Assembly: GCA_041747735.1 (NCBI GenBank)
Contig: JBGTEP010000106.1
Location: 2,980 to 66,979, forward strand
Reading direction: 5' to 3'
DNA: 64,000 nucleotides
Source: Chryseolinea sp.
GTDB taxonomy: Bacteria; Bacteroidota; Bacteroidia; Cytophagales; Cyclobacteriaceae
The position numbers were made by a program, and so were the translations under genes. Under the pieces are notes generated by a model. It was not told where the DNA came from. It worked only from the letters and a program-made list of their open reading frames with translations, and made no database searches. Positions 740 to 17,153 of the stretch are shown piece by piece; position 1 is the first letter of the stretch, and every line of letters begins with the position of its first letter.

Positions 740-2629
740 ATGAAAAAGTTGTTTATTCTTTTAGGCATTATATGTTTCACACTACCCACTGTTGCGCAGG
801 AGCGGTATCTCGACCTTGGCTCTTTGATAGAAGAAATTGAATTAACCGGATATTCTGACCGCTTTGCGTATTTTTATGGAACGCGTACTGATAGCAGTAG
901 CCAACGTGAATGGCCCTTCATCCAACAACAGCGTTTTACATTTCCACCGCCAGGCCAAAACGTTTCATTTATTCATTTTCTTGACAACCAAACACCTAAC
1001 TGGCATAAAATTAATATCTTACCCTACAACGGAACTGAGACTTTCTATTGGCGACTCATCAATCTTCGCTTTGGTGATGTGACGATTTACGAACCGCAAC
1101 CGGATTTTACTTTTGCAGAAATCAATCTTAGCGCCCGGGAATCGTTTGGTGAAAACACAAGTGTCGCTGGTGGAATAACCAAATCTATTCGTACATCAAC
1201 TGCTGATACGCTTACGTATTATTTTAAAACCTCATCGGAGACGAGAAATAAACAGATCATGGCGATTACAATTCCGCTACACAACGTTAGGCATACCTTG
1301 TTAAGAGACTTACCAAGATCTTTTTTACTGGGAATCGTTTTTGGTATGGTGATTTATAATCTGCTTTTGTTTTTTGCACTACGCGATAGGGCTTATGCAT
1401 GGTATGTTGGGTATGTTTTCTTTTACTTCGTTGCCTTGCTCAATTGGTATACTTTCGACTATCAATATTTAGCCCCAGCGTTTGGCTGGTGGAGTGTGCG
1501 GGGATTTTATATATGCCTTTCACTTTCTTTAGTGTGTATAATTGGATTTTCACAAATATTTTTGCAACTAAAATTACGTGTACCAACAACCTATTATCTT
1601 ACTGGCTTATTCCAACTTGGGTTGATATGCTATGCTCTTATGTTTGCTGTTTTTCCGTATTTCGAAAACAGGATTACTATTCTTCAACTTGGTCTTTTCA
1701 TCCCGTCTAGTTTACTCGTGGTTTGCACCGCTATTTTCATTTATAGGAGGTATCGCCAGAAACACGTAAAATATTATCTTATTGCTTTTCTGCCACTCAC
1801 CTTATTTGTTGCGATCCATTCTTTTCATCAACAATTTACAGGCAAACTATTTTATGTAGGAACATTAACGTTAATGGATATTGGGCTTGCCTCAGAAACG
1901 GTAATCATGTCGTTGGTATTGGCATTTCGATTTAATTTATTAAAAGAAGAAGCGGAGAAGGTACACAGTGAAAACGAGCGCATCATTGTGGAGAAAGGTG
2001 AAGAACTTACCAACACCATAATCGAAACACAAGAGAAGGAACGAAAACGCATTTCACAGGATTTACATGATGAGTTAGGTGCCACGCTTTCGACCATAAA
2101 ATTGCATATTAGTCAGTGGCATGAAAAACCCAACAGTAGTAATCAGATTTCAATCTTGCTGGATGCAGGTATTGGACAACTAAGAAGTATTTTGTTGAAC
2201 CTTAATCCGCAAACATTGGAAGAAGATGGATATGGTGAAGCGATGAAAGAATTGGCATTTCGTATTTCCCAAAGTGGGTTGTGTGAAACAAATTTCTTTG
2301 ACGTCAACGCAAGCCAATATCTCACCCGAAAAGAAAGTTCTGCGCTTTATCGTATTTCGCAGGAATTGATTAATAATACCTTGAAGTATGCAGGAGCTTC
2401 TTGTATCAACATACAATTAATTTGTGAACCCGACTTAAAGTTTACCTTTACATATGAGGATAATGGAAGAGGTATCGACAAAAATATTGTGCAAGGATAT
2501 GGGTTAAAAAACGTCCAGGCACGGGTTGAACTTTTACACGGATCATTTGAAATTGATACGTTGCCTGGTCAAGGTGTATTCGTTACAATTTCGTTTAAAG
2601 GAAAATTGCCTTCACCTGTTTATACTTAA
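740..2629 (+). CDS. 7TM-DISM membrane sensor histidine kinase (HisKA_3 + HATPase_c)
   Basis: Signal peptide, extracellular domain, about 7 hydrophobic helices, H-box ISQDLHDELG, N-box QELINNTLKYA, YEDNGRG and GYGLKN. Confidence 0.9.
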   Translation: MKKLFILLGIICFTLPTVAQERYLDLGSLIEEIELTGYSDRFAYFYGTRTDSSSQREWPFIQQQRFTFPPPGQNVSFIHFLDNQTPNWHKINILPYNGTETFYWRLINLRFGDVTIYEPQPDFTFAEINLSARESFGENTSVAGGITKSIRTSTADTLTYYFKTSSETRNKQIMAITIPLHNVRHTLLRDLPRSFLLGIVFGMVIYNLLLFFALRDRAYAWYVGYVFFYFVALLNWYTFDYQYLAPAFGWWSVRGFYICLSLSLVCIIGFSQIFLQLKLRVPTTYYLTGLFQLGLICYALMFAVFPYFENRITILQLGLFIPSSLLVVCTAIFIYRRYRQKHVKYYLIAFLPLTLFVAIHSFHQQFTGKLFYVGTLTLMDIGLASETVIMSLVLAFRFNLLKEEAEKVHSENERIIVEKGEELTNTIIETQEKERKRISQDLHDELGATLSTIKLHISQWHEKPNSSNQISILLDAGIGQLRSILLNLNPQTLEEDGYGEAMKELAFRISQSGLCETNFFDVNASQYLTRKESSALYRISQELINNTLKYAGASCINIQLICEPDLKFTFTYEDNGRGIDKNIVQGYGLKNVQARVELLHGSFEIDTLPGQGVFVTISFKGKLPSPVYT

Positions 2630-2655
2630 ACGCATCACAACCCCAACCCAGGAAT

Positions 2656-3294
2656 ATGCAGGAAAAATTGAAAATTCTACTGGCTGATGACCATCGCATG
2701 TTTATAGATGGAGTTAATTTACTCTTAATGGCTAACGCACAATATGACGTGGTATGCCTGTGCGCAAATGGAAGGGAAGCCGTATCTTTTGCCGAAGTCA
2801 ACCCGGTAGACGTGGCGCTCTTGGATGTGAACATGCCGGACATGGACGGTGCAGAGACAACAAAGGCTTTAAAGCAATTGCAACCGAATATAAAAGTGAT
2901 TATAATCACAATGCATCGAGAAATAGGTATAATCCGAAAAATGATGCGTGCGGGTGCAGATAGTTATTTATTAAAGGAGACTTCTGCTCATGAATTGTAT
3001 GCTGCCATTAACAAAGTAGTAGAAAATGAGCAATATTTAAGTCCGCTAATATCAGAAGCGGTGATCCAGGCACTTAAGGCTAATGGAAATGAAAACATAA
3101 CAAAGTTGACACTTAGAGAAACAGAAGTTCTCAAGCTGATATCAAACGGTTCCACTACATCAGAGATCGCTGTTCACATAGGCTTGAGCGTTAATACTAT
3201 TGAAACACACCGTAGAAACATGCTGTCGAAGCTTGGCTTGAAAAATACCGCGCAACTGGTTAGATACTCCGTAGAGCAAGGATTACTTGAATAA
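2656..3294 (+). CDS. NarL/LuxR-family response regulator
   Basis: ILLADDH, ALLDVNMPDMDG receiver; C-terminal LTLRETEVLKLI...TIETHRRNMLSKLG LuxR HTH. Confidence 0.95.
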   Translation: MQEKLKILLADDHRMFIDGVNLLLMANAQYDVVCLCANGREAVSFAEVNPVDVALLDVNMPDMDGAETTKALKQLQPNIKVIIITMHREIGIIRKMMRAGADSYLLKETSAHELYAAINKVVENEQYLSPLISEAVIQALKANGNENITKLTLRETEVLKLISNGSTTSEIAVHIGLSVNTIETHRRNMLSKLGLKNTAQLVRYSVEQGLLE

Positions 3295-3464
3295 AGTTAA
3301 ACTCGATCTAAACGAAAAGAATTTCAAGTAGGACCAAGCGGGAAATTTTGCGGCGTTTAGCTCTTTATCATGCGGAAAGCGTTGGAGATAGCGAATGCTT
3401 AGACCAGGGAAATTTAAAGAGGAATATCGACACATTAGCAGGCACCCTAATATGATACCAATGG

Positions 3465-3611
3465 CTCCAAGTTGCCATCGAATTTTCTATCGTACACCCT
3501 ACTGGTGGGTCGCCTTTCCAATACTGCTTCCAATCCCTCCTCCACAAACCGTTTCTTGACTCTATCTATTGTCCGCATACCAACTTTAAGCACTTTACTT
3601 ATTTGCTCGTT
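3465..3611 (-). mobile_element. IS630-family transposase N-terminal HTH remnant
   Basis: Minus strand reads NEQISKVLKVGMRTIDRVKKRFVEEGLEAVLERRPTSRVYDRKFDGNLE and then diverges and stops. No start codon and no DDE domain. Confidence 0.75.
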
Positions 3612-4463
3612 AGGGCTACAGGCAAACTACGCAAGACACGACGCTTGTCGGCATTGAAATCATACCTTGGCTAGTAAACTTCTTTGCCGCCGGAAGTGTC
3701 AGTCAGTGGGTCAGTCGATGAAGATGTTCGATCCACTGGCGCAATGACAAAATTAAAGAAATGAAGAATTGGCGTTTAGGAATCAACACGCGGATTAGCT
3801 CTGATAATTTGTACGATGAATATTGAGGTGTTAGGAATCGCGAGGAGATTTTCTTTATGTTTTAGTTGAACTCATTTTAATAGCTACGCACTCCAGGTAC
3901 TCACGCGAGATGGCACTATGATCAATGTTGCCCATGGTAAAATTATTATTCTATAAAATAAACAAACTAAAGTTCAAGTTCGGAAGTGGTGTCGTCTACG
4001 GAAGTGACGTTGAAAAAGGCGAAAATGATCTTGGAAACAAAAGAGATGACACATCACAATCCTTTCGTCTTGTTTCGACGACAGTGCATTTAAGTTTGAA
4101 TTATTTTTTCGGACAACGCGTGTATTTCAAGTTGAGCTATCAAAACTGATTTGAGTTTTTTTATTGAAGGCCCGCCATACTATTCAATTTCCAAAAGCCG
4201 GAGAACATGTCAGTTGTGTTTATAATTCTTGTCAATTTGGCTGATTAGGCCATAAAAAATGGGAACTCAGTTCAAAATTTGGTAAATTAGTAATTCAGGA
4301 ATTTTATATCTCCGTAGCAAGCCTTCAGTCTATTTCGGGGAATATCTGTTCAGATCTTTGAGTGCACTCAAGGTCCGCGTTATCGGGCTTTTCCAAGGCC
4401 GTCAAGCGAAGCAGTAATTTCATGGTTCATTTCGATCGGTGATGGCACGATCATTTTATCCAA

Positions 4464-4493
4464 TTAACTAATTATTACTTAACTAATTATTAC
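4464..4493 (+). repeat. Perfect 15-bp tandem duplication (TTAACTAATTATTAC)x2 just upstream of the gabT ATG
   Basis: Read directly: 4464-4478 and 4479-4493. Confidence 0.9.
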
Positions 4494-4495
4494 GA

Positions 4496-5833
4496 ATGGC
4501 TAAAACAACTACTCTGGATCGGCATCTATTATCATTTGAAAAAACTCAGCAACTCTTAGAAAGAAGGAGAGCAGTAGTAGCAAATGGCGTCAGCGTATTC
4601 GTTCCCTCGTCGGCGATGGAATCCAATGGGAGTACGATCATTGATGCGGATGGGAATCACCTGATTGATTTTGGCGGTGGGATTGGTGTGCTTAATGCCG
4701 GTCATTGTCCACCGACGGTTGTGGAAGCAATCCAAAGACAAGCCGGAAAACTTATTCATGCCTGTTTCAACATCTCAACATACATACCTTACCTGGAGCT
4801 ATGTGAAAAGTTGGTTGACCTATTTCCACATGGAGAGCAAACGAAAGCGATGTTAACCAATACAGGAGCGGAATCGGTCGAGAATGCAATAAAAATTGCA
4901 AGACAATCCACGAAGAGATCTGCGATACTTTGCTTCAGCGATGCATTTCATGGGCGCACCATGATGGCGATGACGCTAACCTCGAAAGTAGCTTACAAAA
5001 CAGACTGTGGGCCATTTGCTCCCGAAGTATACCGGCTTCCATTTCCGAATTATTATCACGATGGAAGTGGAATGTCCCAGGATGATTTTGCAGAGAAGGA
5101 ATTGAATAAACTATATGATTCAACGCATACACATGTTGATCCAAATTCAGTTGCCGCCATTATAATTGAGCTTGTTCAGGGTGAAGGAGGTTTCAACATC
5201 GCACCAAAAAGATACGTAGAGGGTCTTCGCAAATTCTGCGATGAATTCGGCATCATGTTGATTTTTGATGAAGTACAGACTGGTTTCTGCCGAACGGGAA
5301 GGTGGGCATCGTATCAGCACTATGGCGTCACCCCGGATATTTCCACGTGGGCGAAATCAATGGGTTCGGGAATGCCCATTGGTGCCGTGATCGGAAAGTC
5401 GGAAGTTATGGATGCCGCAGCCGTTGGGACCATAGGTGGAACCTATCCGGGAAATCCGGTTTGTTGTGCAGCGGCAATAGCCACGCTTAATTATATGGAG
5501 AACATAGACCTGAACGACAAGGCACAGCATATAAGTAAAATTATACACGGCCGTTTCTTAGCCCTGAAAGAAAAATGTCCGGCTATAGGAGACGTGCGAG
5601 GGCTGGGAGCCATGCAGGCGATTGAATTTGTAAAAGATAACGATCCATCACAGCCCGATGCTGAGACAGCAGCCCAGCTAGCCCGGGCGTGCCTGAGGCG
5701 CGGGTTGATTTTATTGAGCGCCGGAACAAACAAAAACGTTATTCGCGTGCTTAGCCCGCTGGTTATTTCAGAGGCATTGCTGAACGAAGGACTAAATATT
5801 ATTGAAGAGGAACTATTAAAACTAACTAACTAA
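4496..5833 (+). CDS. gabT: 4-aminobutyrate aminotransferase-like class III PLP aminotransferase
   Basis: DFGGGIGVLNAGH, TGAESVENA, FHGRT, QGEGG, FDEVQTGF, AKS (PLP Lys), GGTYPGNP. Confidence 0.85.
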   Translation: MAKTTTLDRHLLSFEKTQQLLERRRAVVANGVSVFVPSSAMESNGSTIIDADGNHLIDFGGGIGVLNAGHCPPTVVEAIQRQAGKLIHACFNISTYIPYLELCEKLVDLFPHGEQTKAMLTNTGAESVENAIKIARQSTKRSAILCFSDAFHGRTMMAMTLTSKVAYKTDCGPFAPEVYRLPFPNYYHDGSGMSQDDFAEKELNKLYDSTHTHVDPNSVAAIIIELVQGEGGFNIAPKRYVEGLRKFCDEFGIMLIFDEVQTGFCRTGRWASYQHYGVTPDISTWAKSMGSGMPIGAVIGKSEVMDAAAVGTIGGTYPGNPVCCAAAIATLNYMENIDLNDKAQHISKIIHGRFLALKEKCPAIGDVRGLGAMQAIEFVKDNDPSQPDAETAAQLARACLRRGLILLSAGTNKNVIRVLSPLVISEALLNEGLNIIEEELLKLTN

Positions 5834-5835
5834 GT

Positions 5836-6765
5836 ATGACGCCATTCTCCATAGCCGGAATTCAAATGCATGTTTCAGCAAGCCACACCAATGTACAGGT
5901 GATGAAACACAAAATCGACGTCATCATGTCCGTGTACCCTTGGGTTCAAATGGTCATGTTCAGTGAGCTTTGCCCCTTCGGCCCGCTAACATTTAACGCG
6001 CAGGAATTCCCGAATCAAACTGAAACCGACTTCTGTTTAATCGCGAAGCATTACGGGATCTGGCTTATCCCCGGAACAATGTTCCAGAAAAAGGAACAGG
6101 CTATCTATAACACTGCCACTGTCATTAATCCACAAGGGGAAATTGTTGGCAGGTATAACAAAATGTTTCCATTCTATCCCTATGAGGTAGGAGTTGCGGG
6201 CGGTGATGAATTTCTGATTTTCGACGTTCCGAAAGTCGGCAGGTTCGGGATTACGATCTGCTACGACATGTGGTTTCCTGAAACATCAAGGACACTTGCC
6301 GTGAACGGTGTGGAAGTTATTCTCCATCCCACACTTACCGCAACTATTGATCGGGACATTGAACTTGCATTGGTTCAGGCAACGGCCGCCACCAATCAAT
6401 GTTTCATTTTCGACATAAATGGATTGGGTGATGGTGGCACAGGCAGATCAATCGTGTGTGGACCAGATGGAAGAGTGCTGCACCAGGCCAGTACGGGTGA
6501 AGAACTGATTCCTATTGAAATTGATATGGAGCGCGTGCGACGCAGCCGCGAAATGGGTGTGCTGAGGTTGGGACAACCACTAAAAAGCTTTCGTGAAAGA
6601 AAAGTTCGGTTTGACATCTATCAGGATGATGCTCAAATACCATACCTCCATACGCTGGGAAAACTGAACAAGCCAACTCGCTTCGAGCAGATGAAAGAGG
6701 CACTGCAGTACAACGAACCTCCGTCACTTTCTTCAACACAGTCAAATAAATTTAAAAACAGTTGA
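5836..6765 (+). CDS. Carbon-nitrogen hydrolase (nitrilase superfamily amidase)
   Basis: E-K-C triad motifs FSE, YNKMFP, ICYDMWFPE. Confidence 0.9.
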   Translation: MTPFSIAGIQMHVSASHTNVQVMKHKIDVIMSVYPWVQMVMFSELCPFGPLTFNAQEFPNQTETDFCLIAKHYGIWLIPGTMFQKKEQAIYNTATVINPQGEIVGRYNKMFPFYPYEVGVAGGDEFLIFDVPKVGRFGITICYDMWFPETSRTLAVNGVEVILHPTLTATIDRDIELALVQATAATNQCFIFDINGLGDGGTGRSIVCGPDGRVLHQASTGEELIPIEIDMERVRRSREMGVLRLGQPLKSFRERKVRFDIYQDDAQIPYLHTLGKLNKPTRFEQMKEALQYNEPPSLSSTQSNKFKNS

Positions 6766-6782
6766 ATCTAACCGGTTGAAAA

Positions 6783-7193
6783 ATGAAAACATTAGTAAAA
6801 CACGTGAGCAAAGAAAAGTCATTAAACTTGAAACACTATGTTAATTGGTTTGAGCTACCTGCCTACAATTTTGAACGGGCTGTATCCTTTTACAATGCTA
6901 TCTACAGCATTAAGATGGAGACAACGGAAACAAACGGATATACTATGGGATTTTTTCCAGCGAAAGGCGGAATCGGTGGAGCGGTAGTTCAGGGAGAAGG
7001 ATGCGCGCCCAGCACAACCGGTCCATTAATTTATCTTAATGGAGGCAAGGATCTGAATGTTGTGCTCTCGAGGATCGAGGCCGCAGGTGGACGAGTCATT
7101 TTGCCAAAAACATTAATAAACGAGGCCGTTGGTCATTTTGCGCTTTTTATGGATACTGAGGGAAATCGGCTTGCCTTGCACTCAAAGAACTAG
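6783..7193 (+). CDS. VOC/glyoxalase family protein
   Basis: VNWFELPA...RAVSFY...GGRVILPKT...FMDTEGNRLALHS. Confidence 0.9.
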   Translation: MKTLVKHVSKEKSLNLKHYVNWFELPAYNFERAVSFYNAIYSIKMETTETNGYTMGFFPAKGGIGGAVVQGEGCAPSTTGPLIYLNGGKDLNVVLSRIEAAGGRVILPKTLINEAVGHFALFMDTEGNRLALHSKN

Positions 7194-7221
7194 AAGACCA
7201 TTCGGCCAATGACAATAAACA

Positions 7222-10026
7222 ATGCGGACAAAAAATAACGTTATGGACGGTACTCAACTAAAGGGACTCTATTATAATATCGCTCAGTTTCGTACGGAAA
7301 TTTGGGCTAACCTTAAATTAAAGGCTTACTCGCTTGCTAAGAATAAGAACAAACAAGAGCAAGAAGTGGAGAAAGCAGAGATACTGACGTTAATTAAGGA
7401 CATGCGGGAGGTTGAGCAATACTATGCATTTCCCGGAAATGAGATTTTGGAAACACTTAAAGGATTCATCAAACATGATGAATTTCAGATTCTTCGTAAT
7501 TCAATTACAGAGATTTTAAGATTGCTTGTGAGCGAGGGTTACCGGCAGGATCCTGAGACTCTTTCATTTTCATCCTTTCTAAAGAGGAAAGAAGGTAAAG
7601 GAACCCAAACACCAAAGTCAAGGAAAAGATATTTTGAGGTTTTATTTGTTGATAATCTTTCCGCCAATGATGAACAGCTAATCACCAGGAAGCCGCAGGA
7701 AGTGCGCGATCCCACGGAGCATTTTATTTATCAATTGGTGCATATTAAATCATATCAGGATTGCTTGATCGCATTGATCGCCAATCCTAACATACAAGCG
7801 TGTATCGTCCGAAGCGAAATTCCATTCAAGTCAAAAAACGCTAAAGATACTCTCGGCGCATTTACTTCGGATATCATAAATGACCAATACGAGGATCACC
7901 CCGAGTATGAGTTGGGTATTTTACTGGGCGACGCCATTCGAAAACTGCGTCCTGAAGTCGACATCTATTATGTCACAGACAAAGGAGTACAAAATGTGCA
8001 AGACAACTCATTGAAGAACTTCCAGCGGGTTTTTTACAGAAAAGAAGATTCACAAGAGCTGTATTTAAGTATCATAAGGGGAATTAAAGATCGCTACGAA
8101 ACTCCGTTTTATACGGCATTGAAAGAGTATAGCCAGAAACCAACGGGTGTCTTTCACGCAATGCCAATATCCCGTGGGAATTCAATTTTCAAATCCAATT
8201 GGATTGATGACTTCGGGGAATTTTACGGACGGAACTTGTTTCTCGCAGAAACTTCCTCAACAACTGGTGGCCTTGATTCATTGCTTCAACCTACCGGCCC
8301 TTTAAAGAAGGCCCAGGAACTGGCATCGAAAGCTTTTGGTTCCAGGCGCACTTACTTCGCAACGAATGGAACATCGACGTCTAACAAAATTGTATTGCAA
8401 GCATTGGTAGAACCGGAAGACGTGGTGCTGATAGATCGGGATTGCCATAAGTCACATCACTACGGCATGGTGCTTTCGGGTGCATACGTCACGTACCTGG
8501 ACTCGTATCCTTTACAAAAGTATTCCATGTATGGTGCTGTCCCGTTGGCCTCGATTAAGGAAAGACTGCTAGTGCTTAAGAAGGCCGGCCGGTTGGATCG
8601 GGTCAAAATGCTGCTGCTAACGAATTGTACATTTGACGGACTGGTTTATAACGTTGAACTCGTTATGGAAGAAGTGCTTGCCATAAAACCGGACATGATT
8701 TTTTTATGGGATGAAGCATGGTTTGCATTCGCTGCATTTGCACCAACCTATCGCAAGCGAACAGCAATGCACGTAGCCAATAAGCTGTTCAAAAAGTACA
8801 AGACTGAAGAATACAAGGAAGAGTACAAAAGACACCTCGCCGTCATTAAGAAAAAAGATACGGAGTCTTTACCATCGATGCCAGATCCGGACCTGGTGAA
8901 GATTAGGGTATACGCCACTCAGTCAACCCACAAGACGCTATCATCGCTTCGACAAGGTTCAATGATTCATATTTATGACGAAGAATTTGAGAGGAAGGCA
9001 GAAACTTCATTCCACGAAGCCTATATGACCCATACTTCGACTTCGGCAAACTATCAAATACTTGCATCTCTTGATATTGGAAGACGACAGGTTTCATTCG
9101 AGGGATATGAGCTTGTTGAAAAAAGTGTTGAGATGGCGATGATTTTGCGTGCAAAGATCAATGACCATCCAAAGCTGAAGAAGTATTTCAAGGTACTTAC
9201 CATCGCTGACTTAATCCCTGACCGACACCGTCAGTCAGGACTTTCAGAATATTATCGTCCGGGCTTTGGCTGGCAACGATTAGAAGAAGCATGGGACAAA
9301 GATGAGTTTGTTCTGGATCCGACTAAGATAAACCTTCATATCGGGAGAACAGGGATGGATGGAGATACCTTCAAGAACGAGTATCTGATGGACCAGTTCA
9401 ATATTCAGGTGAATAAGACCTCGCGCAATTCGGTGTTATTTATGACGAATATAGGGACCACAAGAAGTTCTGTGACCTATCTGATCAGCACTCTCCTAAA
9501 AATTTCCGAACAAATTGATGCTCGGTTTGATGCTCTCAACAATGAAGAGCACAGGATAATGCAGAACAAAATTTATTCACTAACGGAGGAAGCGCCGTCG
9601 CTGCCTGATTTCAGCTACTTCCATGATTCATTCCGTGCCGTAGCCGGCATTCCGGGTGGGCGAATGCGTGAGGCCTACTTCCTTGCCTACAAGGAAACAA
9701 AATGTGAATACGTCAAACTCTCCGAGTGTAATAAAATAATGCTGGAAGGAAGGATGCTTGTGAGTGCTGCATTTGTTATTCCATATCCGCCGGGCTTCCC
9801 GGTTCTTGTTCCAGGCCAGGTAATGACAAAAGAAATTCTTGATTTTCTTCAGGCACTTGATGTAAAAGAAATTCATGGTTACCGCCCGGATCTCGGCTTG
9901 CGCATTTTTACAGACGCCGCGCTCAACAGGCAGCAGTCGGGCTCAGGTTTAAGAGGTGCGACTGGAATGATGGGAGCACTCGGGAACGGTAACAGAAAGA
10001 GTAAAGTTGTTATCACCAAATCCTGA
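7222..10026 (+). CDS. Large fold-type-I PLP amino-acid decarboxylase (Orn/Lys/Arg decarboxylase class I, with N-terminal receiver-like wing)
   Basis: GGLDSLLQP, TNGTSTSNK, DRDCHKSHH, WDEAW, QSTHKT (PLP Lys), HTSTS, PYPPGFP; 934 aa. Confidence 0.9.
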   Translation: MRTKNNVMDGTQLKGLYYNIAQFRTEIWANLKLKAYSLAKNKNKQEQEVEKAEILTLIKDMREVEQYYAFPGNEILETLKGFIKHDEFQILRNSITEILRLLVSEGYRQDPETLSFSSFLKRKEGKGTQTPKSRKRYFEVLFVDNLSANDEQLITRKPQEVRDPTEHFIYQLVHIKSYQDCLIALIANPNIQACIVRSEIPFKSKNAKDTLGAFTSDIINDQYEDHPEYELGILLGDAIRKLRPEVDIYYVTDKGVQNVQDNSLKNFQRVFYRKEDSQELYLSIIRGIKDRYETPFYTALKEYSQKPTGVFHAMPISRGNSIFKSNWIDDFGEFYGRNLFLAETSSTTGGLDSLLQPTGPLKKAQELASKAFGSRRTYFATNGTSTSNKIVLQALVEPEDVVLIDRDCHKSHHYGMVLSGAYVTYLDSYPLQKYSMYGAVPLASIKERLLVLKKAGRLDRVKMLLLTNCTFDGLVYNVELVMEEVLAIKPDMIFLWDEAWFAFAAFAPTYRKRTAMHVANKLFKKYKTEEYKEEYKRHLAVIKKKDTESLPSMPDPDLVKIRVYATQSTHKTLSSLRQGSMIHIYDEEFERKAETSFHEAYMTHTSTSANYQILASLDIGRRQVSFEGYELVEKSVEMAMILRAKINDHPKLKKYFKVLTIADLIPDRHRQSGLSEYYRPGFGWQRLEEAWDKDEFVLDPTKINLHIGRTGMDGDTFKNEYLMDQFNIQVNKTSRNSVLFMTNIGTTRSSVTYLISTLLKISEQIDARFDALNNEEHRIMQNKIYSLTEEAPSLPDFSYFHDSFRAVAGIPGGRMREAYFLAYKETKCEYVKLSECNKIMLEGRMLVSAAFVIPYPPGFPVLVPGQVMTKEILDFLQALDVKEIHGYRPDLGLRIFTDAALNRQQSGSGLRGATGMMGALGNGNRKSKVVITKS

Positions 10027-10028
10027 AG

Positions 10029-11471
10029 ATGCAAGCGAACCAACCGAAACGACCCGAACTAAAAAGAGCGATCAGCAAAGCTGGATTTTTCTGCCTTGCA
10101 TTTGGTGCTATGATTGGGGTAGGCTGGGTTACCGCGATGGGGCCATGGCTTCGAACAGCAGGTCCTCTTGGTGCAGCAATTGCCTTCGCTATCGGAGGCC
10201 TGCTTATGTTGTTCATTGGCTTCTGCTACGCTGAAGTTACAGCCATGCTTCCTGTATCAGGAGGGGAAGTAGCCTATGCCTACAAAGCCTTTGGCAGCAG
10301 GCACTCTTTCTTAGTCGGATGGTTTCTTGCGTTCGGTTATATATCTGTTTCAGCGTTTGAGGCAATATCTGTCGGGAAAATTCTTAGCTATCTGTTCCCG
10401 TTTGTGGATCGGTGGCCGCTCTATTCAATTAATGGCGACACCATCTTTGGAACGCATTTGCTACTTGCTCTCTTTTTTGTTTCAGTGATCACCTACGTAA
10501 ACTATACTGGTGTTCGGAATTCGATGCGATTTCAAATATACCTGACTATAGTTTTTCTCCTTATAGTTTTGTGTGTTGCAATAGTAGGTCTTGTACAAGG
10601 AAAAATCGCTAACCTTCAACCGCTCTTTGTTGGGAACTCCTCCCCGGATATTGCGGCTGGCATAACGAGTGTGATCGTTACAGTTCCATTCTGGCTCGTA
10701 GGATTTGATACAATACCACAAGGGGCGGAAGAGGCCAAGGAAACAGTTTCTCACCGGACGATCGGCATCTTGATTTTAGTCTCAATAATTGCCGCAGTGC
10801 TGTTTTACATTTTGTTGATATTCAGCGCATCGATGGTGACGAGTTGGTCTTCATTATCGGGATCAGAATTATTTACAGCGAGTGCTTTTGAAATTGCTTT
10901 TGAATCCGATATCCTGGTAACTGGAATTTTAATTGCCATTATCATCGGACTTCTCACAAGTTGGAATGGTTTTTTCTTGGCAGGATCACGGGTGCTTTTT
11001 GCTATGGGTCGTGGTAAAATAGTTGCCCCTTCGCTTGGTGAATCTCACGCGAAATACGAAACACCATATAATGCGGTGATTTTTAGTGGCGTGATCACAC
11101 TGCTTTCCACATTGCTTGGCCGTGGGGCTATGATCGCATTTGTCAACGTTGGGTCTTTGTGTATCGCAGGCGCATTTCTTGGAGTCTCATTTTCGTACCT
11201 GCGTTTGAGAAAATCTTTCCCCGATCAACTGCGTCCCTATAAGGCGCCAGGAGGAAAACGGACAGGATACATTTCTATTGCTGGCTCAATATTGATCTTA
11301 CTTGCCATTACACTGCCCGGAAGTCCCGCCGCTTTGAAGTGGCCAATGGAGTGGGCCATTTTTTCGACTGTGTGTTTTTTGGGAGCAATTCTATGGATTG
11401 GTTCAAAATCAAGTCGCAGCGCGACTTCAAGCCAGGACAGGGACTATCTTATTTTAGAAAATTTCAATTAA
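10029..11471 (+). CDS. APC-family amino acid/polyamine permease
   Basis: GAMIGVGW, YAELxxxxPxxGG-like YAEVTAMLPVSGG, GFDTIPQGAEE; about 12 TM helices. Confidence 0.9.
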   Translation: MQANQPKRPELKRAISKAGFFCLAFGAMIGVGWVTAMGPWLRTAGPLGAAIAFAIGGLLMLFIGFCYAEVTAMLPVSGGEVAYAYKAFGSRHSFLVGWFLAFGYISVSAFEAISVGKILSYLFPFVDRWPLYSINGDTIFGTHLLLALFFVSVITYVNYTGVRNSMRFQIYLTIVFLLIVLCVAIVGLVQGKIANLQPLFVGNSSPDIAAGITSVIVTVPFWLVGFDTIPQGAEEAKETVSHRTIGILILVSIIAAVLFYILLIFSASMVTSWSSLSGSELFTASAFEIAFESDILVTGILIAIIIGLLTSWNGFFLAGSRVLFAMGRGKIVAPSLGESHAKYETPYNAVIFSGVITLLSTLLGRGAMIAFVNVGSLCIAGAFLGVSFSYLRLRKSFPDQLRPYKAPGGKRTGYISIAGSILILLAITLPGSPAALKWPMEWAIFSTVCFLGAILWIGSKSSRSATSSQDRDYLILENFN

Positions 11472-11487
11472 CAAACCCCATTTTACA

Positions 11488-13062
11488 ATGAATTCAACAC
11501 AAAGTAAAGAAAATAGCAGTCCGGCAATAAAGTCTGCTGCTGTTGCCGTTTCCGAGAGAAGAAATACCGGAACAGTCAGAAAAATGACATCTAAAAAGAA
11601 GAATACAAAGGTACTGAATGGGATTCCAGACATAAGAAGATTCTTTTACAGAAATGAAATACCGATATACTTTGTGAGTGCTACCAATTTCAATCTGCTT
11701 GGTGCCGACGAATGGATTAAAGGTTTCAAGTTTATCTGCTATATAGAATGCTTCGATGGGTTGCACCCGAACGTCTTTTCACCGAAGGAAGAAATAGCCC
11801 ACGATGAATTTAAAAGTATAGAAGACATTAACAATTACCTGCTCGAGCACAAAGAGGTGGTAGACTATCTAAAGGAACGAGGTGGAAAAGGAAAAGCATT
11901 GTTCCTGATGTTTGACGAGCGTACCGAGGAATTAGCGAAGCAACTTGGATTAGAAGTATGTTTTCCCTCCGCTGAGATGAGAACATTTATGGATAATAAA
12001 GTAAATACAAACCGAATCGCTGAGAAAGCCGGGGTTCCTTGTGTGCCGTATATTTTATCTAATGTTATGAGTTATGAACACCTGGTTTCGATCAGTAAAA
12101 AGAAACTCGGTACCGACCTTGTCATACAAACTCCTTTTGGTGACTCTGGGCACACGACTTTTTTTATTTCCAACCAGGAGGAATGGGAGAAGCATGCAGA
12201 TGAAATTATCGGGGAAAAAGAGGTGAAGATCATGAAACGTATTAACTGCCGCGGTTCTGCGATAGAGGCGTGCGTTACGAGACATGGTACTATCGTGGCT
12301 CCGTTAATGACAGAGCTAGTAGGATTCAAAGAACTTACACCGTACAAGGGAGGGTGGTGTGGAAATGAAATCTATGCTGACGCTTTCACACCCGAGATCA
12401 GAAAAAAGGCGCAGGAGTATACGCAGCTTTTCGGCAACCAGCTAAGGGACGAGGGTTATAAAGGTTATTTTGAACTTGACTTTCTTATCGACCTGGATGA
12501 TCAGCAGATTTACCTCGGTGAATTGAATCCCAGGATAACAGGCGCCAGTTCTATTACCAACCATGCGGTATTTGCTTTGTCAGATATGCCTATGCTGTTG
12601 TTTCATATGATGGAGTGGATGGATCAACCTTACAAGCTAAATGTCAAGGCACTTAACAGCCGTTGGTTCAAACCGGAAAACATTGATTCGTGGGGACAGC
12701 TTGTTATTAAACATACCGGAAAAAATATACAAGTGATAGCGGAAGCTCCGCGCTCCGGAATTTATAAAATGAACGAGGACGGCACGATTAAATTCTCAAG
12801 AATGGACACACACCGAAGGGCCGTGGAGACGGAGAAGGAAGCGTTCTTCCTTCGAATCAGCCGCACCGATGATTATTATTATGAGGGTGCTGACCTGGGC
12901 ATACTGGTTATGCGTGGACGCCTGATGACTGATGATTTTACGCTAAACCCAAGAGCGAAGAAGTGGATAAAGGCGATCAAGCAGTTATACGCTGCCGTGG
13001 CCTATGTGCCTCAGGCATCTGTTCCGGAAGTAGCTGAGATTGGAGGATTTAAAATGATGTAG
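11488..13062 (+). CDS. ATP-grasp carboxylate-amine ligase of unknown substrate
   Basis: DNKVNTNRIAEKAGVP, QTPFGDSGHTT, FELDFL, GELNPRITG. No biotin carrier gene nearby. Confidence 0.8.
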   Translation: MNSTQSKENSSPAIKSAAVAVSERRNTGTVRKMTSKKKNTKVLNGIPDIRRFFYRNEIPIYFVSATNFNLLGADEWIKGFKFICYIECFDGLHPNVFSPKEEIAHDEFKSIEDINNYLLEHKEVVDYLKERGGKGKALFLMFDERTEELAKQLGLEVCFPSAEMRTFMDNKVNTNRIAEKAGVPCVPYILSNVMSYEHLVSISKKKLGTDLVIQTPFGDSGHTTFFISNQEEWEKHADEIIGEKEVKIMKRINCRGSAIEACVTRHGTIVAPLMTELVGFKELTPYKGGWCGNEIYADAFTPEIRKKAQEYTQLFGNQLRDEGYKGYFELDFLIDLDDQQIYLGELNPRITGASSITNHAVFALSDMPMLLFHMMEWMDQPYKLNVKALNSRWFKPENIDSWGQLVIKHTGKNIQVIAEAPRSGIYKMNEDGTIKFSRMDTHRRAVETEKEAFFLRISRTDDYYYEGADLGILVMRGRLMTDDFTLNPRAKKWIKAIKQLYAAVAYVPQASVPEVAEIGGFKMM

Positions 13063-13066
13063 GCAG

Positions 13067-14056
13067 ATGCTCATCTCTTTCAATTGTATTCAGGAAGATA
13101 AGCCAGGCGAAAAATGGAAAGCCCTGTTTAAAAGAACATGGCGACACTATAAACACTGGTTTTTGTCGGAAGGATACCTGGCGAGGAAAGGATACCTCAC
13201 TTCTGTTAATCAATTGCAAACTTCAATGCCGGAGCTTATGCCAATTTATGAACGACTCGTTGAACTTGTTGGCGGCGGTGATCTCGAAGCCAGATTCCTT
13301 AGCATGTACTCGCCACCTGCGTACATGTCAGCGTGCTCGCAAGTAGCATGGACTCAGGATGGTGCTTCCTTGATAAGAAACTATGACTACAGTCTAAAGA
13401 TGTTCGAGGGAACGATGTTGTATTCCAATTGGTTGCAGCCGGTCGTTGGTGTTACCGATTGTAACTGGGGGCTTCTCGACGGAATGAATGGATCCGGGCT
13501 CGCAGCTTCTTTGACTTTCGGTGGTCGAAAAGTTGTTGGCGAAGGATTTGGGATTCCTCTTATTATGCGATACATCTTAGAAACTTCGCGAACAGTTAAG
13601 GACGCGATAAATGTTTTACATCGTGTCCCGGTTCACATGGCCTACAATGTTACGCTAATCGAACGTTCAGGACTATTCGCAACCGTATTTCTCTCTCCCG
13701 ACAGGCCACCTGTGGTTATCGACGAGCCGGTTGCAACAAACCATCAGACAGAAGTTGAATGGAGTGATTATGCTTCGTTAACCGGAACTATAGAGCGTAA
13801 GCGAGTTCTCGAGGAACTGATCGCATCAACCCGTGAGACTGAAACAAGTGTGCTTGGACATTTTCTGAACCCGCCGCTCTACAACACGAATTTTGAGAAA
13901 TTGTTCGGAACCCTGTACACGGTAATATATCGGTTACATAAACAAGAAGCGGAGGTCATATGGCCCGGAATGGAGATCAAACAGACATTTACATCTTTCG
14001 ATGAAATGTGTTTGGTCCCTTTTACAATCAACATGAACAAAGACCTGGCCCGGTAA
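13067..14056 (+). CDS. C45-family autoproteolytic Ntn-hydrolase/acyltransferase
   Basis: Candidate nucleophile Cys90 (SAC|SQ), IRNYDY, LDGMNGSGLA, ATNHQ. Confidence 0.85.
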   Translation: MLISFNCIQEDKPGEKWKALFKRTWRHYKHWFLSEGYLARKGYLTSVNQLQTSMPELMPIYERLVELVGGGDLEARFLSMYSPPAYMSACSQVAWTQDGASLIRNYDYSLKMFEGTMLYSNWLQPVVGVTDCNWGLLDGMNGSGLAASLTFGGRKVVGEGFGIPLIMRYILETSRTVKDAINVLHRVPVHMAYNVTLIERSGLFATVFLSPDRPPVVIDEPVATNHQTEVEWSDYASLTGTIERKRVLEELIASTRETETSVLGHFLNPPLYNTNFEKLFGTLYTVIYRLHKQEAEVIWPGMEIKQTFTSFDEMCLVPFTINMNKDLAR

Positions 14057-14137
14057 CAAACTGGTTCGGGTAGAAGAGATTCTCTTCTCTTCTTCTCTAC
14101 GTCTAAATAGAAAAATGGAAAGCTAAAATTTTAATTT

Positions 14138-14953
14138 ATGGATGTGTTGATTGAAGTATTTGATAACATAAAGAAAGCGCTCGTTGAAAACGTCGTGGAA
14201 CTCCTTCCAAACCTGGGTCTTTCCCTCATCGTGGTTCTTGTCGGTATTGCGATAGCCTGGATGGCCAGGAGGGTAACGATAAGGCTGATTCTTTATATTG
14301 ATCGGAAAGTCAACGAAAGGTTAAGTGTGCGTTTGTTAAAAATTGATCTACAAAGCGTCGCGAAGGCTTTAGCCAGGGCAATGTTTTGGACGATCATATT
14401 GTTCACAATTGCTGTGATTATCCAAATACTCGGAATGTCAATTCTTACTACGTGGGTCAATGACCTGATTAAATATGTCCCGAATATTCTGGCAGTACTA
14501 CTGATTATTGTTTTTGGAATTGTTTCCGGAAAGCTGGCTGGTGATTTGATTTCATCCGCATCCGCAAGAGCGGGACTGACTACCGGTAACCAACTCGGCA
14601 GGTTAGTTCACATACTTATACTGGTAGTGACTTTTATCATCGCTATTGACCAAATAGGGATTGATATGGAATTTCTAACTAACATACTGACCATTATTGT
14701 GGCTTCATTATTATTTGCGGCTGCACTGGCATTCGGGCTTGGCGCAAACGTTTCAGTTAGTAACATACTCGGATCATATTACCTCCAACAGGTTTACAAG
14801 GAGGGCGATAAGGTCAGAATAAATGACATCGAAGGAATCATCATAAGAGTTACAGCAACAGTTGTTCTGATCGAAACCGAATCCGGCAGGGTTGTCATTC
14901 CATCAAAAGTTTTCAATGAATCGAAGTCTGAACTAATTAAGTCTAACACATGA
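14138..14953 (+). CDS. Small-conductance mechanosensitive channel-like membrane protein (TM-helix repeat/MscS)
   Basis: Multiple TM helices; ALAFGLG...NILGS...GDKVRIND IEG MscS beta-domain. Confidence 0.8.
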   Translation: MDVLIEVFDNIKKALVENVVELLPNLGLSLIVVLVGIAIAWMARRVTIRLILYIDRKVNERLSVRLLKIDLQSVAKALARAMFWTIILFTIAVIIQILGMSILTTWVNDLIKYVPNILAVLLIIVFGIVSGKLAGDLISSASARAGLTTGNQLGRLVHILILVVTFIIAIDQIGIDMEFLTNILTIIVASLLFAAALAFGLGANVSVSNILGSYYLQQVYKEGDKVRINDIEGIIIRVTATVVLIETESGRVVIPSKVFNESKSELIKSNT

Positions 14954-15777
14954 ATTACGACACACTTTTACTTGAGAATTTCGTCAAATATCACACAACC
15001 GAAGCAGCGGTCCTGACTGAGAGTTTGCAAGATTCGGAGGTTGAAAAAGGGTTTAATACTTTACCAACGAAAGTATTACTTGCCCTGTTGAGTCAAATGG
15101 ATCGTTATAAAGTGTTGAAAGGTATCGAAACCTTAGACGAATCAAAGCTTACGGCCCTGTTTGAATCATTTCCAATTTCCGTCGCGAGAATACTGCTTTC
15201 TCAGATGGATGAGCAAAAAAGAAACTTGATTCTCGAAAACATATCTAAGGAGAAAGCAAGATCAATTCGGGTTGTTCTGAGCTATTCAGAAAATGCAGTC
15301 GGCGCCTACATGGATTCCCGTCCCTTCTTTCTCACGGACGACAGCAACGTAGGTGAAGCGATAGAGAAGATAAAAGAAAGCTCACAGGATGCCTTTCAAC
15401 ATCTCCCAATTATAGGACGTGATCAAAAATTGGTGGGCGTTGTCGATGTAAAATCATTGTTAGTTTCGGACAAGGAAAAATCTCTTCACTCCATCATGAT
15501 GGATGCCCCATTCAAAATATTGGCAGAAATGGATATGGAGGTTTTACTGGAACCTGGCGCCTGGGACGATGCATTTGTATCCTTGCCAGTAGTTGATGCC
15601 AGTGGAATATTCTTAGGTGTTTTACAGAGAAAAACGGTCACAAGTTTTGTCCCGTTCAAGAAGGTGCTTAGCAAAGAAGTGGCAGCGGCAAGCTCTGCTT
15701 TAGGTGATTTATACCGGATCGGGTTTCTAAGTATTGTCAGAGGCGCAAATGAAATTGGTTCAAGAAACGCAAAATAA
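14950..15777 (+). CDS. Soluble MgtE N-terminal + CBS-pair protein lacking the membrane domain
   Basis: YSENAVGAYM, CBS motifs (KLVGVVDVKSLL; LPVVDASGIFLG); no hydrophobic C-terminus. Confidence 0.75.
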   Translation: MNYDTLLLENFVKYHTTEAAVLTESLQDSEVEKGFNTLPTKVLLALLSQMDRYKVLKGIETLDESKLTALFESFPISVARILLSQMDEQKRNLILENISKEKARSIRVVLSYSENAVGAYMDSRPFFLTDDSNVGEAIEKIKESSQDAFQHLPIIGRDQKLVGVVDVKSLLVSDKEKSLHSIMMDAPFKILAEMDMEVLLEPGAWDDAFVSLPVVDASGIFLGVLQRKTVTSFVPFKKVLSKEVAAASSALGDLYRIGFLSIVRGANEIGSRNAK

Positions 15778-17096
15778 TGGAAGCTTTAACTCAACATAAA
15801 GAATTCACAACAACGCTATTGGACTATTATTTCAGGAAATATCCTGACGAAGTAGCCGAGTCACTAAATGAATTTCCCACGGATTATCTCGTCGAATGCT
15901 TAAAAGGATACTCGCCCGAGATCTCCCGTGAAATTCTATCAAAACTGTCCAGTCAGTCAGCAACAGAGGTTCTTACCCTCATGGACGAACCATCGTTTGT
16001 AAGTTTGATTTCCGGAATGGATACATACACTGCTGCAATTTTGATATCGCGATTGGAAAAACCGCTCGTGGAAGAAAGGCTCAGGTCGCTTGGTTCTAAA
16101 TTTTCATCCGCAATACGTGCGTTGTTGTCCTATCCACCGGAATCCGCAGCCTTTCTTATGGACACACGGATGAAGTTATTTAGAGAAACTGATTCCGTTA
16201 GCGATGTTCTCAATACGCTGCGTAACCATGGAGACAGAAGCCTGGTGGTTTTATATGTAGTAGACCCGGACGGTAAATTACTCGGAACCGTTCCCATCCA
16301 TGTTATTGCGGTTTCGCCTCCAGGGGAACAGATGGCTAACTTAGTCGGGAAGTCAGTCTTTGTTGAAGCGCTGGCGCCTCGCGAAGAAGTTGTCGAATTA
16401 CTTCAGGACGGTAAGTTAATAAGCCTTCCCGTGGTTGATGTCAACCATAGGATGCTTGGGGTTATTCGATATGATGCGCTTGTCAAAGCTGCTCAACACG
16501 ACGCAACCGAAGACTCCCTCGCCATGTTTGGTGCCGGACGTGAAGAGAAGGCATTGTCAGGTGTTTGGTTTGCGATAAGAAAACGATTGCCCTGGCTTGA
16601 AATAAATCTGGCAACAGCGTTCCTGGCCGCATCGGTCGTAGCACTTTTCGAAGATACTATTGCACGAATAACCGTCCTTGCCGTATTTCTTCCCGTAGTT
16701 GCCGGCCAGTCTGGAAATACAGGTTCTCAAGCACTGGCGGTAACAATCCGCGGTTTGGCATTACGTGAAATACACATTGGTCAATGGTTTAAAGTTGCCC
16801 GAAAGGAAGTATTAGTCGGACTCGTAAATGGTATTGTTATTTCTCTCAGCACAGCTATTATTGTCTTCTTTTGGGCCTCATCGCTTGGATTAGGAGTAGT
16901 GATCGGCGTGTCAATGATCTTTTCTATGGTCATTGCCGGATTTTCGGGAGCTGTGATTCCCATCCTCTTAAAATCGTTTGGACAGGATCCGGCGCAATCA
17001 TCGTCCATCGTATTAACCACAGTAACTGATATCGTTGGCTTTCTAAGTTTTCTCGGACTGGCAAATGTTTTGGGCGACATGTTGGGTGTTGTGTAA
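15777..17096 (+). CDS. mgtE: Magnesium transporter MgtE
   Basis: YPPESAAFLM, CBS pair, KRLPWL, GNTGSQ, DPAQSS...TDIVG. Confidence 0.9.
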   Translation: MEALTQHKEFTTTLLDYYFRKYPDEVAESLNEFPTDYLVECLKGYSPEISREILSKLSSQSATEVLTLMDEPSFVSLISGMDTYTAAILISRLEKPLVEERLRSLGSKFSSAIRALLSYPPESAAFLMDTRMKLFRETDSVSDVLNTLRNHGDRSLVVLYVVDPDGKLLGTVPIHVIAVSPPGEQMANLVGKSVFVEALAPREEVVELLQDGKLISLPVVDVNHRMLGVIRYDALVKAAQHDATEDSLAMFGAGREEKALSGVWFAIRKRLPWLEINLATAFLAASVVALFEDTIARITVLAVFLPVVAGQSGNTGSQALAVTIRGLALREIHIGQWFKVARKEVLVGLVNGIVISLSTAIIVFFWASSLGLGVVIGVSMIFSMVIAGFSGAVIPILLKSFGQDPAQSSSIVLTTVTDIVGFLSFLGLANVLGDMLGVV

Positions 17097-17153
17097 TGAC
17101 CGATTGTCTTTTCGCAAGACTAAACTGAAATTAGGTAAATAATACAAGGTTAT

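Follow-up and report, generated by a model that had tools for sequence, protein, structure and literature searches.

A long-form decarboxylase predicted to act on L-glutamate, and its operon, a variant of the GABA shunt, in Chryseolinea sp.

Gene organization of the locus

A stretch of 64,000 nucleotides from Chryseolinea sp. (Bacteroidota; assembly GCA_041747735.1, contig JBGTEP010000106.1, positions 2,980 to 66,979 of the forward strand; hereafter the window) encodes at positions 7222-10026 (+) a 934-residue protein that Pfam places in PF01276/PF03711, the ornithine/lysine/arginine decarboxylases, and that an initial annotation had suggested to be a glutamate decarboxylase. The open reading frame (ORF) is uninterrupted and holds both sequences quoted in that annotation, FHAMPISRG and GEFYGRNLFLAETS. 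When the ORFs of window positions 1-22000 were listed, the decarboxylase gene was found among eleven genes of the same strand (+), spanning 4496-18509 with gaps of -4 to 81 nt, in the order gabT, carbon-nitrogen (C-N) hydrolase, VOC-like protein, decarboxylase, APC permease, ATP-grasp ligase, C45 hydrolase, MscS-like channel, MgtE-N protein, MgtE and succinate-semialdehyde dehydrogenase (SSADH). This operon is a variant of the gamma-aminobutyrate (GABA) shunt that is unpublished as far as the literature searched shows. The eleven genes are presumably co-transcribed; scans for promoters and terminators were at chance level (35 versus 28.7 and 15 versus 16.9, respectively). Upstream, the region 740-4495 encodes a membrane sensor kinase together with a response regulator of the LuxR type, followed by 1.2 kb without any ORF of at least 100 amino acids.

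Family placement of the decarboxylase

The 934-residue protein is a full-length relative of Mycobacterium tuberculosis Rv2531c and a further member of the long-form family published in 2026, a placement supported by sequence, domain layout, predicted fold, active-site residues and gene context. In a search of the PDB, the Rv2531c entries 9N0O/9N0N were the best matches by a wide margin (803 bits, E 4e-240, residues 59-913), and the best lysine/ornithine/arginine enzyme reached 202 bits, limited to core residues 293-517. An alignment-based AlphaFold2 model (predicted local distance difference test, pLDDT, 81.8) placed all ten Rv2531c chains at the top of a Foldseek search, with a template modelling (TM) score of 0.93 by target and a root-mean-square deviation of 2.9 Å for 9N0O, and full-length lysine/ornithine/arginine enzymes gave TM scores of at most 0.61. 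The resemblance to Rv2531c proposed in the initial annotation was thus borne out. Identity to Rv2531c was 50-51% over its resolved catalytic and C-terminal region, and identity to Escherichia coli AdiA, CadA, LdcC, SpeC and SpeF was 24-28%. None of the curated lysine/ornithine/arginine models was reached (208, 183, 170 and 168 bits versus cut-offs of 968, 1056, 1167 and 794, respectively), and scans of Pfam and NCBIfam gave no match of the protein to PF00282 or TIGR01788 (GadA/GadB). A phylogeny against Rv2531c, AdiA, CadA and SpeC had also been suggested; in a tree of the window homologues and the five E. coli enzymes, in which Rv2531c was not included, the window clade was separate from all five, with long branches.

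A four-domain structure has been described for Rv2531c (PMC12329521; PDB 9N0N/9N0O/9N0P). The window protein comprises a four-helix bundle at residues ~20-104 (helices 20-40, 44-65, 72-84 and 88-104, pLDDT ~90), a receiver-like domain at ~136-292, a catalytic domain containing K571 and R577, and a C-terminal domain. Its C-terminal tail (~9940-10026) is basic and disordered, with pLDDT below 50 for residues 907-934, and similar tails occur in many homologues. Residue P158 (~7693-7695) places a proline in a helix predicted for the receiver-like domain; five inspected relatives have isoleucine or leucine at this position, and the proline may be a natural variant or an assembly error.

The report of glutamate decarboxylase activity to which the initial annotation referred is real: in 2026, knockout metabolomics, isotope tracing and nuclear magnetic resonance demonstrated that Rv2531c decarboxylates glutamate and not lysine, ornithine or arginine (PMC13506015). 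The enzyme requires Mg2+ and has a K0.5 of ~509 mM with a Hill number of 4, GABA was the sole metabolite altered in its knockout, and its sequence cluster contains 1,231 proteins, including some from Flavobacteriia (PMC13506015). Rv2531c also shows a lag and switches between tetramer and dimer. By analogy, the window decarboxylase probably depends on Mg2+ as well.

Active-site residues

Residues of Rv2531c were mapped onto the window protein by hand from the PDB-search alignment, in which H405/K406/K570/R576/T606/R718/N731 correspond to H409/K410/K571/R577/T607/K718/N731. The lysine that binds pyridoxal 5'-phosphate (PLP) and its contacts are all kept (K571, H409, K410, D497, T607 and S608 for K570, H405, K406, D493, T606 and S607 of Rv2531c), which is not diagnostic since these residues are common to lysine/ornithine/arginine enzymes. 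In the basic pocket of Rv2531c (R576, R718 and N731), R577 and N731 of the window protein are identical and K718 is a conservative replacement. Of 82 homologues, 81 had R577, K718, N731 and R735, and the remaining one is a broken gene. As a sign of decay, the decarboxylase gene of locus L051 (~4970-7684) is interrupted by stops at about codons 516 and 527.

All five E. coli enzymes have serine at column 577. At column 731, where the window protein has asparagine (N731), CadA, LdcC, SpeC and SpeF have glutamate and AdiA has threonine. The glutamate of LdcI (CadA) at this column, E526, is part of the ammonium pocket (PMC12091041), and this acidic amine-binding residue is not kept in the window protein. 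With an acidic residue gone and basic ones added, the pocket is as expected of a glutamate enzyme, and R577 is proposed, by its match to R576 of Rv2531c, to be the arginine that would bind the gamma-carboxylate.

Predicted GABA-degrading genes and host genome context

The gabT gene (4496-5833, +; 445 amino acids) encodes a 4-aminobutyrate:2-oxoglutarate transaminase that scored 508.6 bits on TIGR00700 (cut-off 506.65) and whose top PDB matches were all GabT/PuuE. The aldehyde dehydrogenase (17154-18509, +; 451 amino acids; putative E228 and C262) is of the Sad/cyanobacterial type; it was best explained as SSADH (521 bits on PRK09406, cut-off 730, versus 296 bits on an aminobutyraldehyde model, cut-off 615), and its top seven PDB matches were all SSADH, with E values down to 5e-126. 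The cluster contains no amine oxidase and no aminobutyraldehyde dehydrogenase, in agreement with the initial annotation; unclassified PF01593 matches elsewhere in the genome do not settle the point. The decarboxylase had further been described as flanked by gabT, gabD and a permease, and all three are present in the cluster, but only the permease is adjacent, starting 2 nt after the decarboxylase. The gabT gene ends 1.39 kb upstream, with the C-N hydrolase and VOC-like genes between, and the SSADH (gabD) gene begins 7.1 kb downstream, beyond six genes that include those of the ATP-grasp ligase and the C45 hydrolase.

The Sad-type aldehyde dehydrogenase is found in the window and in most Flavobacteriaceae operons, GabD-type enzymes scoring above the TIGR01780 SSADH cut-off occur at loci L030, L033 and L079, and a third type occurs at loci L025, L037 and L045, the best PDB match of the L025 protein being ALDH21, an NADP-dependent SSADH (PMC7823795). 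All seven operon enzymes examined from other genomes, together with that of the window, were SSADH-like, and none of the seven matched the malonate-semialdehyde dehydrogenase model. The occurrence of three SSADH-like subfamilies points to succinate semialdehyde as the probable substrate, hence to a C4 amino acid, most readily GABA, which argues against beta-alanine made from aspartate and against diamines.

The host genome (99% complete, 1.8% contaminated) contains a single PF01276 gene, and GadB was not found in it, its sole full PF00282 gene scoring 31 bits on TIGR01788 versus a cut-off of 380. Genes of SpeA-like and arginase-like type and an aguA/aguB-like pair lie elsewhere in it, all scoring below cut-offs but plausible for polyamines, so the decarboxylase is probably not needed for polyamine synthesis. 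The SpeA-like gene (463 amino acids; L117 4714-9183, G000:C79) lies beside arginase-like and deoxyhypusine/homospermidine-synthase-like genes, and the aguB/aguA-like genes (L116 850-9016, G000:C90) directly follow glutamate synthase genes. Replacement of a missing 2-oxoglutarate dehydrogenase by the shunt was rejected, as the E1 component of that enzyme is present. The complete glutamate-GABA-succinate shunt with a non-GadB enzyme, as first proposed, is supported by the decarboxylase family, gabT, the SSADH and the lack of GadB, but that description was incomplete in that it overlooked the ligase branch.

Linkage of the genes in other genomes

Eighty homologous loci were collected from related genomes chosen by similarity to the window decarboxylase; because of this relatedness their counts are not independent and describe linkage without amounting to a statistical test. 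The ATP-grasp ligase is the most constant neighbour of the decarboxylase (71/80 loci), ahead of gabT and gabD; the C-N hydrolase was found in 66, gabT in 59, the VOC-like gene in 56, and an aldehyde dehydrogenase and the C45 hydrolase in 46 each. When only loci with room were considered, the ligase was present in 64 of 65, gabT in 59 of 72, the C-N hydrolase in 60 of 73 and the C45 hydrolase in 42 of 60. Among 400 genomes drawn evenly from the phylum, eight contained the decarboxylase and seven the ligase; in all seven (7/7) the ligase adjoined the decarboxylase, and in none did it occur alone. On alpha- and betaproteobacterial plasmids, the decarboxylase and ligase genes also lie close together, with C45 in both plasmid loci inspected. 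Because the decarboxylase is accompanied most constantly by the ligase, and not by gabT or gabD, the cluster appears to be more than a three-step shunt. The operon is widespread and occurs in many aquatic and soil Gram-negative bacteria.

Several individual loci show other arrangements. On a Rhizobium leguminosarum plasmid (NZ_CP007048.1, 3665-18587; L088), the decarboxylase, ligase and C45 genes are followed by ABC transporter and amidase genes, a divergent Glu/Leu/Phe/Val dehydrogenase gene precedes the decarboxylase, and neither gabT nor gabD is present in this stretch. Genome G375 (L120 5548-9379) keeps the VOC-like and decarboxylase genes without the ligase and with SSADH fragments only, a sign of decay. 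A 2.9-kb contig of the host genome (G000:C10:1-2873; L084, L106) carries a second, partial set of ligase, C45 and SSADH genes (74%, 45% and 57% identical, respectively), which may be a second copy or bin contamination.

The remaining genes of the window cluster are less constant. The APC-family amino-acid permease (10029-11471, +; PF13520; 59 bits versus a GABA permease model) was found in 3 of the 80 loci, as well as in G378 and on a Chondrinema plasmid, and is considered accessory. The MscS-like channel, MgtE-N/CBS protein and MgtE Mg2+ transporter (14138-17096, +; Pfam/NCBIfam) form a local insert that occurred in none of the 80 loci, nor in the examined stretches of G378 and G082. On these counts, both the permease and the MscS/MgtE genes were rejected as core parts. 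The stand-alone MgtE-N/CBS protein is 26% identical to the adjoining MgtE; Rv2531c and ATP-grasp enzymes need Mg2+, and a link to the inserted MgtE genes may be chance. The 136-residue protein at 6783-7193 (+) is called VOC/glyoxalase-like from a reading of its sequence and had no Pfam or NCBIfam match at 1e-3. No regulator was broadly recurrent beside the operon in the 80 loci.

ATP-grasp ligase and hydrolases

The ATP-grasp ligase (11488-13062, +) belongs to PRK06524 (778 bits on NF005096, cut-off 684) and is mislabelled as 'biotin carboxylase'; a true biotin carboxylase was rejected (28 bits on AccC versus a cut-off of 626). Its start (11488-11610) is a low-complexity, lysine-rich stretch of ~40 residues. 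Homology searches led to P0532, a 494-residue 'possible carboxylase' with 42% identity and 65% similarity to the window ligase over 474 residues with three gap positions (E 1e-154). The P0532 gene lies between a PIN-domain toxin-antitoxin pair and a 415-residue beta-lactamase-fold gene, a neighbourhood which we take to be the Rv1722 locus of M. tuberculosis; P0532 was taken as Rv1722 from cluster names, its length of 494 and this gene context. A 2026 preprint reported that Rv1722 (GabtS) joins GABA to trehalose in an ATP-dependent manner, and its Table S1 lists a clustered ligase relative, UQX12652.1, as an Rv1722 match (bioRxiv 10.64898/2026.04.15.718621). Rv1722 and Rv2531 were among 28 genes gained by the ancestor of slow-growing mycobacteria in a 2009 study (PMC3087520), a joint acquisition that is compatible with a split operon without proving it. 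Neither the Rv2531c paper nor the Rv1722 preprint mentions the other enzyme or any gene context, and an incomplete literature search for PRK06524, 'biotin carboxylase-like protein' and an ATP-grasp/C45/decarboxylase operon found nothing.

Two hydrolases accompany the ligase. The C45-family self-cleaving Ntn hydrolase/acyltransferase (13067-14056, +; 141 bits on NF040521, cut-off 85; PF03417) has C90 as its putative nucleophile. The C-N hydrolase (5836-6765, +; PF00795), a member of the nitrilase superfamily with the putative triad E44/K109/C142, reached no equivalog; its assignment as AguB was rejected (70 bits versus a cut-off of 410), a better AguB-like gene lying beside aguA elsewhere in the genome. 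Searches of the PDB and the ESM Atlas gave no substrate lead for either hydrolase. Ligase relatives without an adjacent decarboxylase (L107-L115) mostly lie beside a hydrolase of some kind (amidase, beta-lactamase fold, peptidase S51/M20, GATase or C45), L111 being the exception, and these neighbourhoods suggest a make-and-break cycle. In M. fortuitum (L113), the ligase gene follows the PntAB transhydrogenase genes. Both halves of such a cycle have precedents among enzymes of omega-amino acids: beta-alanyl amides are cleaved by Tan, a C45 enzyme, and GABA-His is a product of carnosine synthase, an ATP-grasp enzyme.

Predicted pathway and alternative explanations

Taken together, the operon is probably best explained as a whole by a GABA shunt together with a cycle in which GABA is ligated into an unnamed conjugate and hydrolysed from it. 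Family membership, residue pattern and gene linkage come from the present analysis, and glutamate decarboxylation and GABA ligation from the M. tuberculosis papers. On this basis, the 934-residue protein is very probably an L-glutamate decarboxylase, and use of GABA by the ligase is favoured with less assurance. Both mycobacterial activities would be retained in the window organism, where glutamate would be converted to GABA and CO2 at PLP-K571 of the long-form decarboxylase. GabT would then transfer the GABA amine to 2-oxoglutarate, and the SSADH would oxidize succinate semialdehyde to succinate. In the second branch, the GabtS-family ATP-grasp enzyme would use ATP to convert the carboxylate of GABA to an acyl phosphate before coupling it to an acceptor; release of GABA from the conjugate would fall to the C45 hydrolase, possibly aided by the C-N hydrolase. 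The system may act as an overflow or a reserve at times when pools of glutamate or GABA rise sharply. Should the window enzyme share the high K0.5 and cooperativity of Rv2531c, the system would be on only at glutamate spikes, for instance in osmotic upshock, although this is speculation.

A further proposal, somewhat doubtful but possible, is that the operon is the original context of the two mycobacterial enzymes and that its product is a previously undescribed GABA conjugate other than GABA-trehalose, which is cycled as a store. If so, GABA might be bound as an amide to an amino acid or an amine, as an ester to another polyol, or to further GABA units in an oligomer, and cycling of this conjugate by the ligase and C45 hydrolase would give many Gram-negative bacteria of water and soil a carbon and nitrogen reserve for stress or osmotic conditions.

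Several points weigh against the glutamate-GABA explanation. The assay evidence within the long-form family comes from a single member, Rv2531c; aspartate is not mentioned and is absent from its reported substrates; and the role of R576 rests on modelling because R576 mutants were unstable (PMC13506015). K406 and T606 are common to lysine/ornithine/arginine enzymes and so not diagnostic, and in the hand-read alignment the window protein has K718 in place of R718 and an extra R735 in place of I735. The 80 loci, being from related genomes, are not independent. ATP-grasp enzymes readily change substrate, and the window ligase falls in a Gram-negative subclade apart from Rv1722 in a quick tree and below the criterion of at least 50% identity by which the preprint defined the Rv1722 subclade (bioRxiv 10.64898/2026.04.15.718621).

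That the ligase makes GABA-trehalose as Rv1722 does, with C45 as the esterase that degrades this compound and the reading of the decarboxylase unchanged, is unlikely, although the 42% full-length identity to Rv1722 and an OtsA-domain protein (in a 748-residue frame) in the host genome would fit it. OtsA was sought in 50 operon genomes, many of them metagenome-assembled genomes (MAGs), and TreY and TreS in those lacking it: 17 had OtsA, and among the other 33 TreY was found in none and TreS above the cut-off in two. Thus, in a search that did not extend to TreT, TreP or trehalose uptake, none of OtsA, TreY and TreS was found in 31 of the 50, including five named isolates, and it is probable that trehalose is not the acceptor in every case. 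Trehalose looks unlikely as a general acceptor, with the test weakened by incomplete MAGs and the unsearched routes. In addition, the recurrent neighbours, which were grouped by clustering and not annotated, included no family recognised as sugar-related, and the two ligases belong to different subclades.

It is also improbable, on balance, that the decarboxylase acts on glutamate while the ligase and hydrolases act on a non-GABA substrate, such as glutamate itself, and are linked to it only by shared regulation. Relatives of the ligase do occur in actinobacterial-type loci without an adjoining decarboxylase or gabT, and 42% identity does not fix a substrate; however, the adjacency in Gram-negative genomes is near-perfect (64/65 and 7/7), and the one tested relative uses GABA. 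The production of beta-alanine from aspartate, or the use of both aspartate and glutamate, with beta-alanyl amides formed by the ligase and cleaved by C45 much as by carnosine synthase and insect Tan, respectively, appears highly improbable: the basic pocket would also suit aspartate, which is not among the substrates reported for Rv2531c, but the operon aldehyde dehydrogenases are SSADH-like, none matches the malonate-semialdehyde dehydrogenase model, and the Rv2531c knockout altered GABA only. Finally, that the family label is right and the product of a basic-amino-acid decarboxylase enters a Puu-like route, with acylation of the diamine by the ATP-grasp enzyme, deacylation by the hydrolases and completion by GabT/GabD, as PF01276/PF03711 membership and the resemblance to the ligase-hydrolase-GabT-GabD layout of the E. 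coli Puu pathway would allow, is scarcely credible given scores far under the lysine/ornithine/arginine cut-offs (208 versus 968 bits at best), the lost amine-binding glutamate, the conserved basic residues R577, K718 and R735, the lack of an oxidase or aminoaldehyde dehydrogenase in the operon, the separate polyamine route in the genome and the inactivity of Rv2531c on lysine, ornithine and arginine.

Implications

The decarboxylase matters mainly as an annotation correction, as more than 1,000 such proteins are filed in the lysine/ornithine/arginine family and searches based on GadB miss the GABA-producing capacity of long-form enzymes. Of greater importance is the operon, which brings together two enzymes characterized separately in M. 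tuberculosis, supplies candidate hydrolases for the breakdown of GABA conjugates, and predicts a metabolite that should be findable in harmless, culturable Bacteroidota such as Salegentibacter, Christiangramia and Taibaiella.

Comparison with known systems

The window decarboxylase resembles Rv2531c in length (934 versus 947 residues), four-domain layout, fold (TM 0.93) and PLP site, as well as in R576/R577, N731, T606/T607 and K406/K410. The two differ at R718 (K718 in the window) and I735 (R735), and the window gene shares its operon with the genes of GabT, the SSADH, a ligase and two hydrolases. The activity reported for Rv2531c, with its Mg dependence and cooperativity, may extend to the window protein. 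Similarly, the window ligase belongs to the same ATP-grasp family as Rv1722 (42% identity) but to a different subclade, and is paired with a C45 hydrolase, whereas Rv1722 adjoins a beta-lactamase-fold gene. The acceptor of Rv1722 is trehalose; as most operon host genomes show no trehalose synthesis genes, that of the window ligase may differ.

The wing-domain enzymes AdiA, CadA, LdcC, SpeC and SpeF have the PF01276 fold and PLP-binding residues in common with the window protein, but are only 24-28% identical to it, lack the extra N-terminal bundle and have serine in place of R577; the substrate pocket of CadA is acidic (E526), unlike that of the window protein. The classical GadA/GadB-GabT-GabD shunt would share the same net route from glutamate through GABA and succinate semialdehyde to succinate; its entry enzyme belongs to the GadB family (PF00282), whereas that of the window does not and is accompanied by a ligase/hydrolase branch. 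A functional analogy, with no orthology claimed, is provided by the Ebony/Tan and carnosine synthase systems of animals, in which omega-amino acids are conjugated, released by a C45 enzyme (Tan) or, in the case of GABA-His, joined by an ATP-grasp enzyme.

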